Program-made: the position numbers and the translations under genes
Notes under the pieces: model-generated
Told to the model about the DNA's origin: nothing
The model's input: the letters and a program-made list of their open reading frames with translations, nothing else
Databases searched by the model: none
Origin: Escherichia coli
GTDB lineage: Bacteria; Pseudomonadota; Gammaproteobacteria; Enterobacterales; Enterobacteriaceae
Reading direction: 5' to 3' (one strand)
DNA length: 64,000 nucleotides
Assembly (NCBI RefSeq): GCF_030384885.1
Contig: NZ_CP128613.1
In this document: positions 28,998 through 41,071 of the stretch, piece by piece
How the letters are laid out: the number at the start of each line of letters is the position of its first letter
Position numbering within the stretch: position 1 is the stretch's first letter

Positions 28998-31900
28998 ATG
29001 ATTACTATTGACGGTAATGGCGCGGTTGCTTCGGTGGCGTTTCGCACCAGTGAAGTTATCGCCATCTACCCTATTACCCCCAGTTCCACGATGGCAGAAC
29101 AGGCTGATGCATGGGCCGGAAACGGCTTGAAAAACGTTTGGGGAGACACACCACGCGTGGTTGAAATGCAGTCGGAAGCGGGTGCTATCGCTACCGTGCA
29201 TGGTGCTTTGCAAACTGGCGCCCTCTCAACATCGTTTACGTCATCGCAGGGTTTGCTGCTGATGATCCCAACGCTGTACAAACTGGCAGGCGAACTGACG
29301 CCGTTTGTCCTGCATGTTGCGGCTCGTACCGTTGCCACACATGCACTCTCTATTTTTGGCGATCATTCCGACGTCATGGCAGTGCGCCAGACGGGTTGCG
29401 CGATGTTGTGTGCAGCAAACGTCCAGGAGGCGCAAGACTTTGCTCTCATTTCGCACATTGCGACGCTGAAAAGTCGCGTGCCATTTATTCATTTCTTTGA
29501 TGGTTTCCGCACGTCCCACGAGATCAATAAAATTGTCCCGCTGGCCGATGACACTATTCTTGAACTGATGCCGCAGGCAGAAATTGATGCTCATCGCGCC
29601 CGTGCACTCAACCCGGAACATCCGGTGATCCGCGGTACGTCCGCCAATCCTGACACTTATTTCCAGTCTCGCGAAGCCACCAACCCATGGTACAACGCAG
29701 TCTATGACCATGTTGAACAGGCGATGAATGATTTCGCTGCCGCGACAGGTCGCCATTATCAGCCCTTTGAGTATTACGGGCATCCACAAGCGGAACGGGT
29801 GATTATCCTGATGGGCTCTGCCATCGGCACCTGTGAAGAAGTGGTTGATGAATTGCTGACCCGAGGCGAAAAAGTGGGCGTGCTAAAAGTTCGTCTGTAC
29901 CGCCCCTTCTCCGCCAAACACTTGCTACAAGCTCTGCCGGGATCCGTACGCAGCGTGGCGGTAGTGGACAGAACCAAAGAACCGGGTGCCCAGGCAGAAC
30001 CGCTCTATCTGGATGTGATGACCACACTGGCTGAAGCCTTTAATAATGGCGAGCGCGAAACCCTGCCCCGTGTCATCGGCGGGCGCTATGGTCTTTCATC
30101 CAAAGAATTTGGCCCGGACTGTGTTCTGGCAGTATTTGCCGAACTCACTGCAGCTAAACCGAAAGCGCGCTTTACGGTTGGTATTTACGATGATGTGACC
30201 AATCTGTCACTGCCGTTGCCGGAAAACACCCTGCCAAACTCGGCGAAACTGGAAGCCTTGTTTTATGGTCTTGGTAGTGATGGCAGCGTTTCCGCGACCA
30301 AAAACAATATCAAGATTATCGGTAATTCCACGCCGTGGTACGCACAGGGCTATTTTGTTTACGACTCCAAAAAGGCGGGCGGCCTGACGGTTTCTCACCT
30401 TCGCGTGAGCGAACAGCCGATTCGTTCCGCTTATCTCATTTCCCAGGCTGATTTTGTTGGCTGCCACCAGTTGCAGTTTATCGATAAATATCAGATGGCT
30501 GAACGTTTAAAACCTGGCGGCATTTTCCTGCTCAACACGCCGTACAGCGCAGATGAAGTATGGTCGCGCTTGCCGCAGGAAGTTCAGGCCGTGTTAAACC
30601 AGAAAAAAGCGCGCTTCTATGTGATTAACGCGGCGAAAATCGCCCGTGAATGTGGCCTGGCGGCCCGTATTAATACCGTCATGCAGATGGCTTTTTTCCA
30701 TCTGACGCAAATTCTGCCTGGCGACAGCGCCCTGGCCGAATTGCAGGGCGCGATTGCCAAAAGCTACAGCAGCAAAGGCCAGGATCTGGTGGAACGCAAC
30801 TGGCAGGCTCTGGCACTGGCGCGTGAATCCGTAGAAGAAGTTCCGCTACAGCCGGTTAATCCGCACAGCGCCAATCGACCGCCTGTGGTTTCCGATGCTG
30901 CTCCTGATTTCGTGAAAACCGTTACCGCTGCGATGCTCGCCGGACTTGGCGATGCTCTCCCCGTTTCGGCGCTGCCGCCAGACGGCACCTGGCCGATGGG
31001 TACCACACGCTGGGAAAAACGCAATATTGCCGAAGAGATCCCCATCTGGAAAGAGGAACTCTGTACTCAATGTAACCACTGCGTCGCCGCTTGCCCACAC
31101 TCAGCTATTCGCGCCAAAGTGGTGCCGCCTGAAGCAATGGAAAATGCCCCTGCCAGCCTGCATTCGCTGGATGTAAAATCGCGTGATATGCGCGGGCAGA
31201 AATATGTCTTGCAGGTAGCTCCGGAAGATTGCACCGGCTGTAACCTGTGCGTCGAAGTTTGCCCGGCGAAAGACCGTCAGGATCCAGAGATCAAAGCTAT
31301 CAATATGATGTCACGTCTGGAACATGTAGAAGAAGAGAAAATCAATTACGACTTCTTCCTAAATTTACCAGAAATCGATCGCAGCAAACTGGAACGTATT
31401 GATATTCGTACATCGCAACTGATTACACCGCTGTTTGAATATTCAGGTGCTTGCTCTGGTTGTGGCGAGACGCCGTATATTAAATTGCTGACTCAGCTCT
31501 ATGGCGATCGGATGTTGATCGCTAACGCTACGGGTTGTTCTTCAATTTATGGTGGTAACCTGCCCTCCACACCATATACCACCGATGCCAACGGTCGTGG
31601 ACCGGCATGGGCGAACTCGCTGTTTGAAGATAACGCCGAATTTGGCCTTGGTTTCCGCCTGACGGTCGATCAACACCGTGTCCGCGTGCTGCGTCTGCTG
31701 GATCAATTTGCCGATAAAATCCCGGCTAAATTACTAACTGCGTTGAAATCAGACGCCACGCCAGAGGTTCGTCGTGAACAGGTTGCAGCTTTACGCCAGC
31801 AACTCAACGATGTTGCTGAAGCACATGAACTGCTGCGTGATGCAGATGCACTGGTGGAAAAATCAATCTGGCTGATTGGTGGCGATGGCTGGGCTTACGA

Positions 31901-32522
31901 TATTGGCTTTGGCGGTCTGGATCATGTATTGAGTCTGACGGAAAACGTCAACATTCTGGTGCTGGATACGCAATGCTATTCCAATACCGGTGGTCAGGCG
32001 TCAAAAGCCACGCCGCTTGGCGCGGTGACTAAGTTTGGCGAGCACGGCAAACGTAAAGCGCGTAAAGATCTTGGCGTCAGTATGATGATGTACGGTCATG
32101 TTTATGTGGCGCAGATTTCTCTCGGCGCGCAGCTCAACCAGACGGTGAAAGCGATTCAGGAAGCGGAAGCGTATCCGGGGCCATCGCTGATCATCGCTTA
32201 TAGCCCGTGTGAAGAGCATGGTTACGATCTGGCACTCAGTCACGACCAGATGCGCCAACTCACTGCTACCGGCTTCTGGCCGCTATATCGCTTTGATCCG
32301 CGTCGTGCCGATGAAGGCAAACTGCCGCTGGCGCTGGATTCACGCCCGCCGTCAGAAGCACTGGAAGAAACGTTACTTCACGAGCAGCGTTTCCGTCGTC
32401 TGAATTCGCAGCAGCCAGAAGTGGCAGAACAGTTATGGAAAGATGCCGCAGCTGATTTGCAAAAACGCTATGACTTCCTGGCACAAATGGCCGGAAAAGC
32501 GGAAAAAAGCAACACCGATTAA
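28998..32522 (+). CDS. ydbK: pyruvate:flavodoxin/ferredoxin oxidoreductase
   Basis: 1174-aa ORF; two 4Fe-4S ferredoxin motifs CTQCNHCVAACP and CTGCNLCVEVCP; thiamine-diphosphate domain region GGDGW. Confidence 0.95.
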   Translation: MITIDGNGAVASVAFRTSEVIAIYPITPSSTMAEQADAWAGNGLKNVWGDTPRVVEMQSEAGAIATVHGALQTGALSTSFTSSQGLLLMIPTLYKLAGELTPFVLHVAARTVATHALSIFGDHSDVMAVRQTGCAMLCAANVQEAQDFALISHIATLKSRVPFIHFFDGFRTSHEINKIVPLADDTILELMPQAEIDAHRARALNPEHPVIRGTSANPDTYFQSREATNPWYNAVYDHVEQAMNDFAAATGRHYQPFEYYGHPQAERVIILMGSAIGTCEEVVDELLTRGEKVGVLKVRLYRPFSAKHLLQALPGSVRSVAVVDRTKEPGAQAEPLYLDVMTTLAEAFNNGERETLPRVIGGRYGLSSKEFGPDCVLAVFAELTAAKPKARFTVGIYDDVTNLSLPLPENTLPNSAKLEALFYGLGSDGSVSATKNNIKIIGNSTPWYAQGYFVYDSKKAGGLTVSHLRVSEQPIRSAYLISQADFVGCHQLQFIDKYQMAERLKPGGIFLLNTPYSADEVWSRLPQEVQAVLNQKKARFYVINAAKIARECGLAARINTVMQMAFFHLTQILPGDSALAELQGAIAKSYSSKGQDLVERNWQALALARESVEEVPLQPVNPHSANRPPVVSDAAPDFVKTVTAAMLAGLGDALPVSALPPDGTWPMGTTRWEKRNIAEEIPIWKEELCTQCNHCVAACPHSAIRAKVVPPEAMENAPASLHSLDVKSRDMRGQKYVLQVAPEDCTGCNLCVEVCPAKDRQDPEIKAINMMSRLEHVEEEKINYDFFLNLPEIDRSKLERIDIRTSQLITPLFEYSGACSGCGETPYIKLLTQLYGDRMLIANATGCSSIYGGNLPSTPYTTDANGRGPAWANSLFEDNAEFGLGFRLTVDQHRVRVLRLLDQFADKIPAKLLTALKSDATPEVRREQVAALRQQLNDVAEAHELLRDADALVEKSIWLIGGDGWAYDIGFGGLDHVLSLTENVNILVLDTQCYSNTGGQASKATPLGAVTKFGEHGKRKARKDLGVSMMMYGHVYVAQISLGAQLNQTVKAIQEAEAYPGPSLIIAYSPCEEHGYDLALSHDQMRQLTATGFWPLYRFDPRRADEGKLPLALDSRPPSEALEETLLHEQRFRRLNSQQPEVAEQLWKDAAADLQKRYDFLAQMAGKAEKSNTD

Positions 32523-32550
32523 ATGCTCTGGATAAGGATTATCCAATTCT

Positions 32551-32660
32551 AAAAAAAAGCCCGGACGACTGTTCGGGCTTGTCTTTTTATATGTTGGAAA
32601 ATCAGTGGCAATGCAATGGCCCAACAGAAAATAAAATCTGTGACAATAAAGGCATATAAC
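32551..32660 (-). ncRNA. micC: MicC sRNA (Hfq-dependent repressor of ompC)
   Basis: Reverse complement of this interval matches the recalled MicC sequence GTTATATGCCTTTATTGTCACAG...GCCCGAACAGTCGTCCGGGCTTTTTTTT, including its intrinsic terminator. Confidence 0.85.
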
Positions 32661-32887
32661 CCGCGCAGAATAACGTATAGCAAATTAAAAGTATAATTTT
32701 TATTTTGTATGTATTACCTTCAATACATTCACCATACTTATTATCATTTCATAAGAATTATTTGATTAAGATTTAACTTAAGGCGTAACAAATGATATTT
32801 ATCGGCTAACGGAACTTCTCCTTTAGGATGTTTTTACTCCCCGAAGCCGGGGTAAAAGGCAAATAAAATAACTAAAGGATTTATTCA

Positions 32888-34021
32888 ATGAAAAGCAAAG
32901 CACTGGCACTCTTAATTCCGTCCCTGCTTGCAGCAGGTGCTGCACATGCAGCCGAAGTTTATAATAAAGACGGCAACAAATTAGATCTGTATGGCAAAGT
33001 TGATGGCCTGCATTATTTTTCTGATAATTCAGCGAAAGATGGCGACCAGAGCTATGCGCGTCTGGGTTTTAAAGGCGAAACCCAAATTAACGATCAACTT
33101 ACTGGCTACGGTCAATGGGAATACAATATTCAGGCAAACAACACTGAATCTTCAAAAAACCAGTCATGGACCCGTCTGGCATTTGCCGGACTGAAATTTG
33201 CAGATTACGGTTCTTTCGATTACGGACGTAATTATGGCGTAATGTACGACATCGAAGGCTGGACCGATATGCTGCCTGAATTTGGCGGTGACTCTTATAC
33301 CAATGCAGACAACTTTATGACTGGTCGTGCCAATGGCGTCGCGACTTATCGTAACACTGATTTCTTCGGTCTGGTAAATGGTCTGAACTTCGCGGTGCAG
33401 TATCAAGGTAACAACGAAGGAGCCAGTAATGGTCAGGAAGGCACCAACAACGGACGTGATGTTCGCCATGAAAACGGTGACGGCTGGGGTCTTTCCACAA
33501 CATATGATTTAGGCATGGGCTTTAGCGCTGGTGCGGCATACACCTCTTCTGACCGCACCAATGACCAGGTTAACCATACTGCGGCGGGTGGTGATAAAGC
33601 AGACGCGTGGACTGCTGGGCTAAAATACGATGCTAACAATATTTACCTGGCAACCATGTATTCAGAAACGCGTAATATGACCCCGTTTGGCGACAGCGAT
33701 TATGCTGTTGCAAACAAAACCCAGAACTTTGAAGTCACTGCACAGTACCAGTTTGATTTTGGTCTGCGTCCGGCAGTCTCTTTCCTGATGTCTAAAGGCC
33801 GTGACCTGCACGCTGCCGGTGGTGCAGACAACCCGGCAGGTGTTGATGATAAAGATCTGGTAAAATACGCCGATGTTGGCGCGACTTACTATTTCAATAA
33901 AAATATGTCCACTTACGTTGACTATAAAATCAACCTGTTGGATGAAGATGACAGCTTCTACGCTGCCAACGGCATCTCTACCGATGATATTGTCGCTTTA
34001 GGTCTGGTTTATCAGTTCTAA
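32888..34021 (+). CDS. ompN: outer-membrane porin OmpN
   Basis: 377-aa ORF with signal peptide and porin C-terminus ...GLVYQF. Confidence 0.92.
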
Positions 34022-34771: not shown

Positions 34772-35707
34772 ATGTCGCAAAATCAAGAAATTAGTAAGAA
34801 AGAACAATACAATCTGAACAAATTACAAAAACGTCTGCGTCGTAACGTGGGCGAAGCCATTGCTGACTTCAATATGATTGAAGAAGGCGATCGCATCATG
34901 GTTTGCCTCTCCGGGGGTAAAGACAGCTATACCATGCTGGAGATTCTGCGCAATTTGCAGCAAAGCGCGCCAATCAATTTTTCGCTGGTGGCTGTTAACC
35001 TCGATCAAAAGCAACCGGGCTTCCCGGAACACGTTCTGCCCGAGTATCTTGAAAAGCTGGGCATTGAGTACAAGATTGTGGAAGAGAACACTTACGGTAT
35101 CGTGAAAGAGAAGATTCCGGAGGGCAAAACCACTTGCTCACTGTGTTCTCGTCTTCGTCGCGGAATTCTTTACCGTACCGCAACGGAACTGGGAGCGACG
35201 AAGATCGCGCTGGGTCACCATCGTGACGATATCCTGCAAACGTTGTTCTTAAATATGTTCTACGGCGGCAAGATGAAAGGTATGCCTCCGAAACTGATGA
35301 GCGATGATGGCAAACATATTGTGATTCGTCCGCTGGCCTACTGCCGCGAGAAAGATATTCAGCGCTTTGCCGATGCAAAAGCGTTCCCGATTATTCCGTG
35401 CAACCTGTGCGGTTCACAACCTAACCTGCAACGTCAGGTGATTGCTGACATGTTGCGTGACTGGGATAAACGTTATCCGGGGCGTATCGAGACGATGTTC
35501 AGCGCGATGCAGAATGTGGTGCCGTCGCATCTGTGCGATACCAACCTGTTCGATTTCAAAGGCATTACCCACGGTTCTGAAGTGGTTAACGGGGGTGATC
35601 TGGCGTTTGATCGCGAAGAGATCCCTCTACAACCGGCGGGTTGGCAGCCTGAAGAAGATGAAAATCAGTTGGATGAGTTACGACTGAATGTGGTTGAAGT
35701 GAAATAA
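34772..35707 (+). CDS. ttcA: tRNA 2-thiocytidine(32) synthetase TtcA, prophage-free allele
   Basis: 311-aa ORF with PP-loop SGGKDS and Cys motifs; the N-terminus [14 protein letters not shown] differs from the recalled K-12 Rac-lysogen form MQENQQITKKEQYN. Confidence 0.9.
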
Positions 35708-35788
35708 CCCGGATAGCGCCCGATGCGCAAGCTTATCGGGCTACTCTTATGGAGGCCGGATAAGACGCGGCCAGCGTCGCATCCGGCA
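35708..35788. repeat. REP/BIME element (two REP units)
   Basis: cccggatagcgcccgatgcgcaagcttatcgggcta and gccggataagacgcggccagcgtcgcatccggca between the convergent ttcA and dbpA. Confidence 0.7.
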
Positions 35789-35835
35789 ATCCCGAAGAAG
35801 ATGTTTACTCTTGCACCCTGCGATTCAACATTTCA

Positions 35836-37209
35836 TTATTTTAATAACCGCACCCGGCACGTTTTTCCTTTAATCTTCCCGCCCTGTAACTGTTTCCATG
35901 CTTTATGAGCAACAGCCTGACGCACCGCAACATAGACATGCGCCGGATGCACGGCGATTTTGCCAATATCTGCGCCATCAAGCCCGATATCTCCTGTCAG
36001 CGCACCTAATACATCACCCGGGCGCATTTTGGCTTTTTTCCCGCCATCGATACATAACGTTGCCATTTCTGCTTCCAGCGGCACAATGGAACTATTAACT
36101 GGCGGCGTTTGCCAGTTAAGTTTTATCTGCAACATGTCAGAAATGATATTGGCCCGCTGTGCTTCTTCCGGGGCACAGAAACTGATCGCCAGACCGCTAT
36201 TTCCTGCACGCGCTGTACGCCCGATGCGATGTACATGAACTTCAGGGTCCCACGCCAGTTCAAAGTTCACTACCAGCTCAAGCGATTTAATATCAAGACC
36301 ACGCGCAGCAACATCCGTCGCAACCAGCACACGAGCGCTACCGTTAGCAAAACGTACCAGGGTCTGATCGCGGTCACGTTGCTCCAGATCGCCATGTAAC
36401 GACAATGCACTTTGCCCTATGTCATTCAGCGCGTCGCAGACAGCCTGACAATCTTTTTTGGTATTGCAAAACACCACGCAAGAGGATGGCTGATGCAAAC
36501 TTAATAACCGTTGCAACAGCGGAATTTTGCCTTTGCTGGATGTCTCATAAAATTGTTGTTCAATGGGAGGCAGAGCATCTGTTGAGTCAATTTCAATCGC
36601 CAATGGATCGCGTTGCACTCGTCCGCTGATTGCGGTGATGGCTTCCGGCCAGGTTGCCGAAAACAGAAGCGTCTGTCGAGATGCTGGCGCAAAACGGATA
36701 ACATCATCAATGGCATCGCTAAATCCCATATCCAGCATGCGATCGGCTTCATCCATCACCAGCATATTCAACGCATCCAGTGATACCGTGCCTTTTTGCA
36801 GATGGTCCAGCAAACGACCCGGGGTTGCCACGATAATATGCGGCGCATGTTGCAACGAATCACGCTGCATACCGAACGGTTGACCACCGCACAAAGTCAA
36901 AATTTTGGTATTTGGCAGAAAACGCGCCAGCCGACGCAATTCACCTGCCACCTGATCCGCCAGTTCACGCGTAGGGCACAGCACTAAAGCCTGGGTCTGA
37001 AATAGCGACGCATCAATTTTCTGTAGCAGCCCGAGGCCAAAAGCCGCCGTTTTGCCGCTGCCGGTTTTCGCCTGCACGCGAACATCTTTTCCGGCAAGGA
37101 TCGCCGGAAGCGCGGCGGCCTGCACCGGCGTCATAGTTAAATAACCCAACTCATTAAGGTTCGTGAGTTGGGCGGGAGGCAAAACATTCAGGGTAGAAAA
37201 AGCGGTCAC
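35836..37209 (-). CDS. dbpA: ATP-dependent DEAD-box RNA helicase DbpA
   Basis: 457-aa ORF, GTG start; Q-motif, Walker A AKTGSGKT, DEAD box VMDEAD, SAT. Confidence 0.93.
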   Translation of the reverse strand: MTAFSTLNVLPPAQLTNLNELGYLTMTPVQAAALPAILAGKDVRVQAKTGSGKTAAFGLGLLQKIDASLFQTQALVLCPTRELADQVAGELRRLARFLPNTKILTLCGGQPFGMQRDSLQHAPHIIVATPGRLLDHLQKGTVSLDALNMLVMDEADRMLDMGFSDAIDDVIRFAPASRQTLLFSATWPEAITAISGRVQRDPLAIEIDSTDALPPIEQQFYETSSKGKIPLLQRLLSLHQPSSCVVFCNTKKDCQAVCDALNDIGQSALSLHGDLEQRDRDQTLVRFANGSARVLVATDVAARGLDIKSLELVVNFELAWDPEVHVHRIGRTARAGNSGLAISFCAPEEAQRANIISDMLQIKLNWQTPPVNSSIVPLEAEMATLCIDGGKKAKMRPGDVLGALTGDIGLDGADIGKIAVHPAHVYVAVRQAVAHKAWKQLQGGKIKGKTCRVRLLK

Positions 37210-40969: not shown

Positions 40970-41063
40970 ACCGGCGCAGAGGAGACCATGCCGGATTTAA
41001 GACGCGGATGCACTGCTGTGTGTACTGTAGAGTCTGGCGGATGTCGACAGACTCTATTTTTTT
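40970..41063 (+). ncRNA. mcaS: McaS sRNA (formerly IsrA/IS061)
   Basis: Matches the recalled McaS sequence ACCGGCGCAGAGGAGAC...GTAGAGTCTGGCGGATGTCGACAGACTCTATTTTTTTAT with terminal hairpin and T-run. Confidence 0.8.
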
Positions 41064-41071
41064 ATGCAGTT

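Follow-up and report, generated by a model that had tools for sequence, protein, structure and literature searches.

The small RNA MicC of Escherichia coli has reportedly been known since 2004. In a later account MicC is described as a 109-nt RNA that represses OmpC by forming a 22-bp duplex with the 5' UTR near the start codon, which inhibits the binding of 30S subunits (PMC5745476, citing Chen et al. 2004), and its association with Hfq is reported in the same place (PMC5745476). MicC is encoded opposite ompN, an arrangement found equally in the window analysed here (i.e. the whole stretch of 64,000 nucleotides of E. coli DNA), and the two genes share their response to beta-lactams, to depletion of sigma-E and to the loss of H-NS; a micC-lacZ fusion was driven by a 184-nt fragment of K-12 whose last base immediately precedes the annotated start of micC (PMC5745476). 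In Salmonella, MicC is regulated by OmpR, and ompD is a further target, reached within its coding sequence (at codons 23-26) and by way of RNase E (PMC3333887). The RNA MicF (RF00033, K-12 b4439) resembles MicC in being Hfq-dependent and about 100 nt long, and in lying divergent from one porin gene (ompC, a layout that is seen in K-12) while repressing another (ompF) at the ribosome-binding region (PMC5745476), but it differs in having an unrelated sequence, another target and another locus, and the RNA described below scores as MicC, not MicF.

An earlier note on this DNA had read a short minus-strand interval as MicC, lying between ydbK and ompN and divergent from the latter, and the Rfam MicC model had been set beforehand as the test that could overturn this reading. 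When the whole window was scanned with Rfam 15 at gathering thresholds three matches were obtained, of which that to RF00121 (MicC) runs from 32663 to 32543 on the minus strand and scores 125.3 bits, well over the gathering score of 90 (E = 2e-19); it spans model positions 1-123 of 123 and is not truncated. The other check, a pairwise alignment over 400 bp with K-12 MG1655, places the annotated start and end of b4427 at 32660 (nucleotide 1 of micC) and 32551 (the terminal U of its tail), exactly the coordinates that the earlier note had given, and the sole difference between the two RNAs is in the T-run, with 8 residues in the window against 9 in K-12. In full, the minus strand of the interval reads GUUAUAUGCCUUUAUUGUCACAGAUUUUAUUUUCUGUUGGGCCAUUGCAUUGCCACUGAUUUUCCAACAUAUAAAAAGACAAGCCCGAACAGUCGUCCGGGCUUUUUUUU, opening with GUUAUAUGCCUUUAUUGUCACAG and closing with AAGCCCGAACAGUCGUCCGGGCUUUUUUUU; the GC hairpin and T-run that had been noticed at its end are indeed there, as a G+C-rich hairpin followed by 8 U. 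Both of the flanking genes that the earlier note had named were likewise found (see Table 1).

The experimentally characterised K-12 copy (b4427, NC_000913.3 1437121-1437231, annotated as ncRNA between ompN, b1377, and ydbK, b1378) thus has, T-run apart, the same RNA sequence as the window, and it shares with it the neighbours and their order (ydbK/nifJ-micC-ompN), the orientation, the 60 bp upstream of the micC +1, the seed, the middle hairpin and the terminator. Further upstream the two are separated by 13 substitutions, all of them between -57 and -192 relative to the start of micC, in the ompN-proximal half of the intergenic region, and within the aligned part of the window (32500-32900) every difference from K-12 falls in this ompN-proximal part, none of them substituting micC itself. 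The interval is almost certainly, on these sequence comparisons, the known small RNA MicC, present as an intact standard allele at its standard locus. Nothing in the sequence contradicts this identity, and because the gene lies in its usual place and is nearly identical to the laboratory-strain copy it must be regarded as an ordinary, already explained feature; MicC is already known, and this copy of it is not a new discovery.

Table 1 Features at the micC locus, with coordinates counted from the first nucleotide of the window.
Feature	Position	Strand	Basis
ydbK/nifJ, pyruvate:flavodoxin oxidoreductase, 1174-aa ORF	28998..32522	+	ORF; annotation in the identical strain and in K-12
micC gene, 110 nt	32551..32660	-	Rfam RF00121; identity to K-12 b4427
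Rho-independent terminator	32551..32583	-	Fold; Rfam structure; pairing in 31 sequences
Middle hairpin, variable loop	32592..32626	-	Rfam consensus structure; paired columns in 31 sequences
5' seed, MicC nt 1-16 (GUUAUAUGCCUUUAUU), target-pairing region	32645..32660	-	Complement of the K-12 ompC leader
Candidate micC promoter (inferred)	32667..32706	-	Manual, conservation-based reading of the 30-genome upstream alignment
ompN, quiescent porin, 377-aa ORF	32888..34021	+	ORF; porin OmpN in the identical strain and in K-12

With its start at 32888 on the plus strand, ompN is divergent from micC, at a distance of 227 bp, while ydbK, which has its stop at 32522 on the same strand, is convergent with micC across a gap of 28 bp. 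In the strain that is identical to the window, the RefSeq name for ydbK is nifJ. Identity of 100% over the 601 bp from 32400 to 33000 was found in just one of 5414 matching E. coli records (2013C-4282, NZ_CP027579.1), and identity of at least 99% in five of the 5414; most records lie at about 96.7%. Several observations on the surroundings may be recorded here in their own right. The ompN leader contains a small G+C hairpin (32839-32852) in which four adjacent positions are unlike K-12, the minus strand reading CCCCGGCTTCGGGG in the window and TCCCCATTTCGGGGA in K-12, and in which the hairpin is still formed. Past uspF the window is again unlike K-12, having an intact ttcA (311 aa, 34772-35707, plus strand) directly followed by dbpA (35836-37209, minus strand), whereas K-12 has the Rac prophage and a ttcC remnant at this point (34772-37209 of the window); the strain from which the window comes is therefore without Rac at that point. 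Adjoining dbpA is a full-length Rfam match to FnrS (RF01796; 37475-37592, minus strand, 134.8 bits, E = 4.4e-24), an FNR-activated small RNA, and a full-length match to McaS/IsrA (RF00115; 117 bits, E = 3.9e-21) lies at 40970-41065 on the plus strand.

Within the species, the 110-nt micC query had a match in 5412 of the 5426 complete E. coli genomes, the identity to the window's gene being at least 99% in 3707 of these, 95-99% in 1201, 90-95% in 2 and 80-90% in 502. The last of these groups (about 502/5426) represents a divergent allele, in which the middle region differs and the seed and terminator are kept; examples are MS1050 (locus L036, 1501-1605, 86.4% identity) and loci L010 and L014. 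Separately, an IS1 element was seen to split micC near nt 52-56 in two strains, EM18-18-42 (L034, 3290-4055) and E08 (L035, 4001-4765), in the former of which the loss extends to the 5' half of micC and the beginning of ompN.

An exact search with the first 21 nt of MicC, using one genome per species, extended the comparison to 30 loci in Escherichia, Citrobacter, Salmonella, Superficieibacter, Pseudocitrobacter and a Raoultella-labelled MAG, giving 31 sequences in the alignment. In tblastn searches with the window's YdbK and OmpN proteins, nifJ adjoins micC in every locus for which that flank is available, and the opposite flank, where it is of sufficient length, contains an OmpN-like porin, with the exception of two Salmonella loci. 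These (L012 and L030, from Salmonella enterica subsp. diarizonae and arizonae) have micC beside nifJ and no OmpN-like porin within 3-4 kb on the other side. The MicC of Salmonella enterica shares with the window the 5' 21 nt, the terminator and the position beside nifJ, but differs in its middle region and in having no ompN within 3-4 kb in the two loci examined. In the MAFFT alignment as a whole the seed is invariant (by construction, given the search), the middle region is variable and contains indels, and the terminator is almost invariant.

The RNA contains two helices in a Rfam-like structure. In the stem of the middle hairpin nt 35-40 (UGUUGG) pair with nt 64-69 (CCAACA), while the terminator is a stem-loop of nt 78-106 with one A.C mismatch, which is present in K-12 also, followed by the 8-U tail. 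Over the 31 sequences 95.0% of the cells in these two helices are paired, as against 29-56% when the partners are slid by 1-3 columns, and five helix pairs are changed on both sides. Four of the five belong to the middle helix, where pairing reaches 87.7% of cells and both sides have changed in 4 of the 6 pairs, pairing here having been counted after specifying the helix from the Rfam consensus; the terminator has 98.6% of its cells paired and one compensatory pair (C:G to U:A). RNAalifold run on the MAFFT alignment recovered the terminator only. As a whole the RNA folds with -23.3 kcal/mol, which is just modestly more stable than shuffled sequences (z = -1.75); small RNAs whose seed is left open usually show such a modest z-score. 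An A/U-rich stretch, AUAUAAAAAGAC, precedes the terminator, and this together with the hairpin and the 8 U makes up the set of features usually linked to Hfq binding; the terminator hairpin and U tail are presumed, by analogy, to be a 3' module that binds Hfq.

The same hairpin may be viewed from the other strand. A consensus scan called 32557-32580 a plus-strand terminator, 35 nt past the ydbK/nifJ stop, and on that strand the mismatch is closed by G-T pairing and the hairpin is followed by a T-rich run; the terminator thus looks bidirectional, and it is probably common to both convergent genes, ending the ydbK/nifJ transcript as well as that of micC. Given this call, and a hairpin palindromic enough to serve in both directions, one might suppose that the interval holds the terminator of ydbK/nifJ only, with the remainder being intergenic DNA that resembles MicC by accident. 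That supposition is scarcely conceivable, however, since the Rfam match extends beyond the terminator to all 123 model positions, the first 21 nt, at a distance of 80-100 nt from the hairpin, show exact conservation across six genera and are complementary to ompC (see below), and the middle helix shows compensatory changes; a minus-strand transcript beginning at the nucleotide equivalent to 32660 is, besides, documented for the identical sequence of K-12. Moreover, a terminator that works in both directions agrees with the presence of micC and does not compete with it as an explanation.

A further question is whether the interval might encode a small peptide, and so be an mRNA or a dual-function RNA. 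An AUG lying 5 nt from the 5' end, at nt 6, does open a frame of 17 codons (MPLLSQILFSVGPLHCH), and the list of open reading frames includes two more over the interval on the minus strand, of 44 aa (32549-32683) and 63 aa (32433-32624). However, the first of these frames ends after anything from 8 to 36 codons in the 31 orthologues (one remaining open for at least 40 codons, to the end of the 125-nt extract), and the peptides are unrelated past their first five residues, which are themselves fixed by the search pattern. The mean length of 17.8 codons compares with 19.9 in shuffled downstream sequence, the frame is without a Shine-Dalgarno sequence, the middle region has indels whose lengths are not divisible by three, and the 44-aa frame begins upstream of the transcription start. 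Peptide coding was rejected on the grounds that the frame is conserved in neither length nor sequence and is no longer than in shuffles, and the chance that it accounts for the interval is put at next to nothing.

Returning to MicC as a regulatory RNA, its known target ompC lies outside the window, and the K-12 ompC leader was used in its place. Nucleotides 1-16 of MicC are the exact reverse complement of AAUAAAGGCAUAUAAC, which occupies -30 to -15 from the ompC start codon and lies directly upstream of the AGAGGG ribosome-binding site. Over 130 nt around this site at least 99% identity was found in 5358 of 5426 complete E. coli genomes, and the source strain can therefore be expected, with high probability, to have the site too. 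Taking the first 30 nt of MicC as query, a duplex of nt 1-22 was predicted with -26.5 kcal/mol, as against -13.5 +/- 2.6 for shuffled seeds, of which 0 in 1000 reach this value. Such energies need to be read with care: full-length RNAduplex of MicC against the ompC leader gives -59.8 kcal/mol for an unrealistic all-over duplex, and because 30-nt windows slid along MicC score similarly to the seed against the leader, duplex energy alone is undiscriminating and it is the perfect 16-nt complement that is the informative result. Repression of ompC translation by the window's MicC would fit both this complementarity and the literature.

It could alternatively be proposed that MicC acts mainly on its divergent neighbour, through the ompN leader, rather than on ompC. 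There is a 12-nt site in that leader with 2 mismatches to the seed complement (32856-32867, plus strand; -32 to -21 of ompN), and the reported co-induction of micC and ompN (PMC5745476) might be taken in the same sense. The predicted duplex, however, has only -10.8 kcal/mol where shuffled seeds give a mean of -11.6, with 616 of 1000 being at least as good, and it is no better than those with shuffled leaders; 7 such sites occur window-wide where 5.0 are expected; and mutation of hfq left an ompN-lacZ fusion unaffected (PMC5745476). An antisense relation does not arise, as the two genes do not overlap. Seed pairing with the ompN leader, being no better than chance, was rejected, and a main action on ompN is exceedingly improbable.

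One feature of the minimum free energy fold bears on how MicC would present its seed to ompC. In this fold nt 2-8 of the seed (UUAUAUG) pair with nt 68-74 (CAUAUAA; the helix spans 32587-32659 on the minus strand), and across the six genera 77.6% of the cells in these columns are paired, compared with 30-59% in slid controls, a figure to be read with the 5' side being fixed by the search. As this side was fixed by the way in which the sequences were collected, covariation of the helix is not assessable, and in most species an A.A mismatch falls in its middle. That free MicC masks its seed in this way seems, on the modelled fold, decidedly unlikely; if it were true, MicC would need Hfq or some other factor to open the seed.

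Turning to the region upstream, a consensus scan for sigma-70 promoters between 32400 and 33000 found none, so that any micC promoter put forward here is a manual, conservation-based proposal only. In an upstream alignment (110 bp, 30 genomes, six genera) there is an invariant A-rich block, AAAATAAAAATTATAC, at 32691-32706 of the window, together with a G+C-rich discriminator and a conserved TATTCT at 32667-32672 (-12 to -7 from the micC start); GTGAATG, GATAAT and AATAATTC are conserved as well (all within 32667-32770). TATTCT may be read as the -10 element and TATACT (32690-32695; TATACA in most genera) as a weak -35 element, and the best manual candidate agrees with the consensus at 7 of 12 positions only. 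The last 60 bp of the 184-nt K-12 fragment mentioned at the outset are identical in the window. The conserved upstream blocks may be promoter or regulator sites held in common with ompN, and they may include binding sites through which the published regulation of micC and ompN is exerted.

Sequence identity, structure, conservation, genomic context and target complementarity are thus matters of observation for the window's micC; if expression, Hfq dependence and the block to ribosome binding are taken from the literature, and the promoter position as inferred above, the following course of events would be expected. The gene would be transcribed on the minus strand from about 32660, ending at the hairpin and U-run at 32551, to give a trans-acting RNA of 110 nt. 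Its single-stranded 5' end (nt 1-16, possibly to 22) would pair with the ompC leader just upstream of the Shine-Dalgarno sequence, with the outcome that 30S binding would be blocked and less OmpC porin made, while the 3' hairpin and U tail would end transcription and likely act as an Hfq handle, as in other RNAs of this class.

Under micC, the RefSeq (PGAP) annotation carries no feature in any non-K-12 record seen, the ncRNA feature being present in K-12 MG1655 alone, and since RefSeq leaves the gene unlabelled in this way, a scan that recovers it is both correct and useful for annotation. As a discovery this copy of MicC has little value, and its practical value is for annotation. As regards the organism, MicC has an effect on the level of OmpC and, through it, on how permeable the outer membrane is and how antibiotics are taken up (PMC5745476, PMC7177473), and a 2026 preprint ties it to the fitness of extraintestinal pathogenic E. 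coli (10.64898/2026.07.27.741068).
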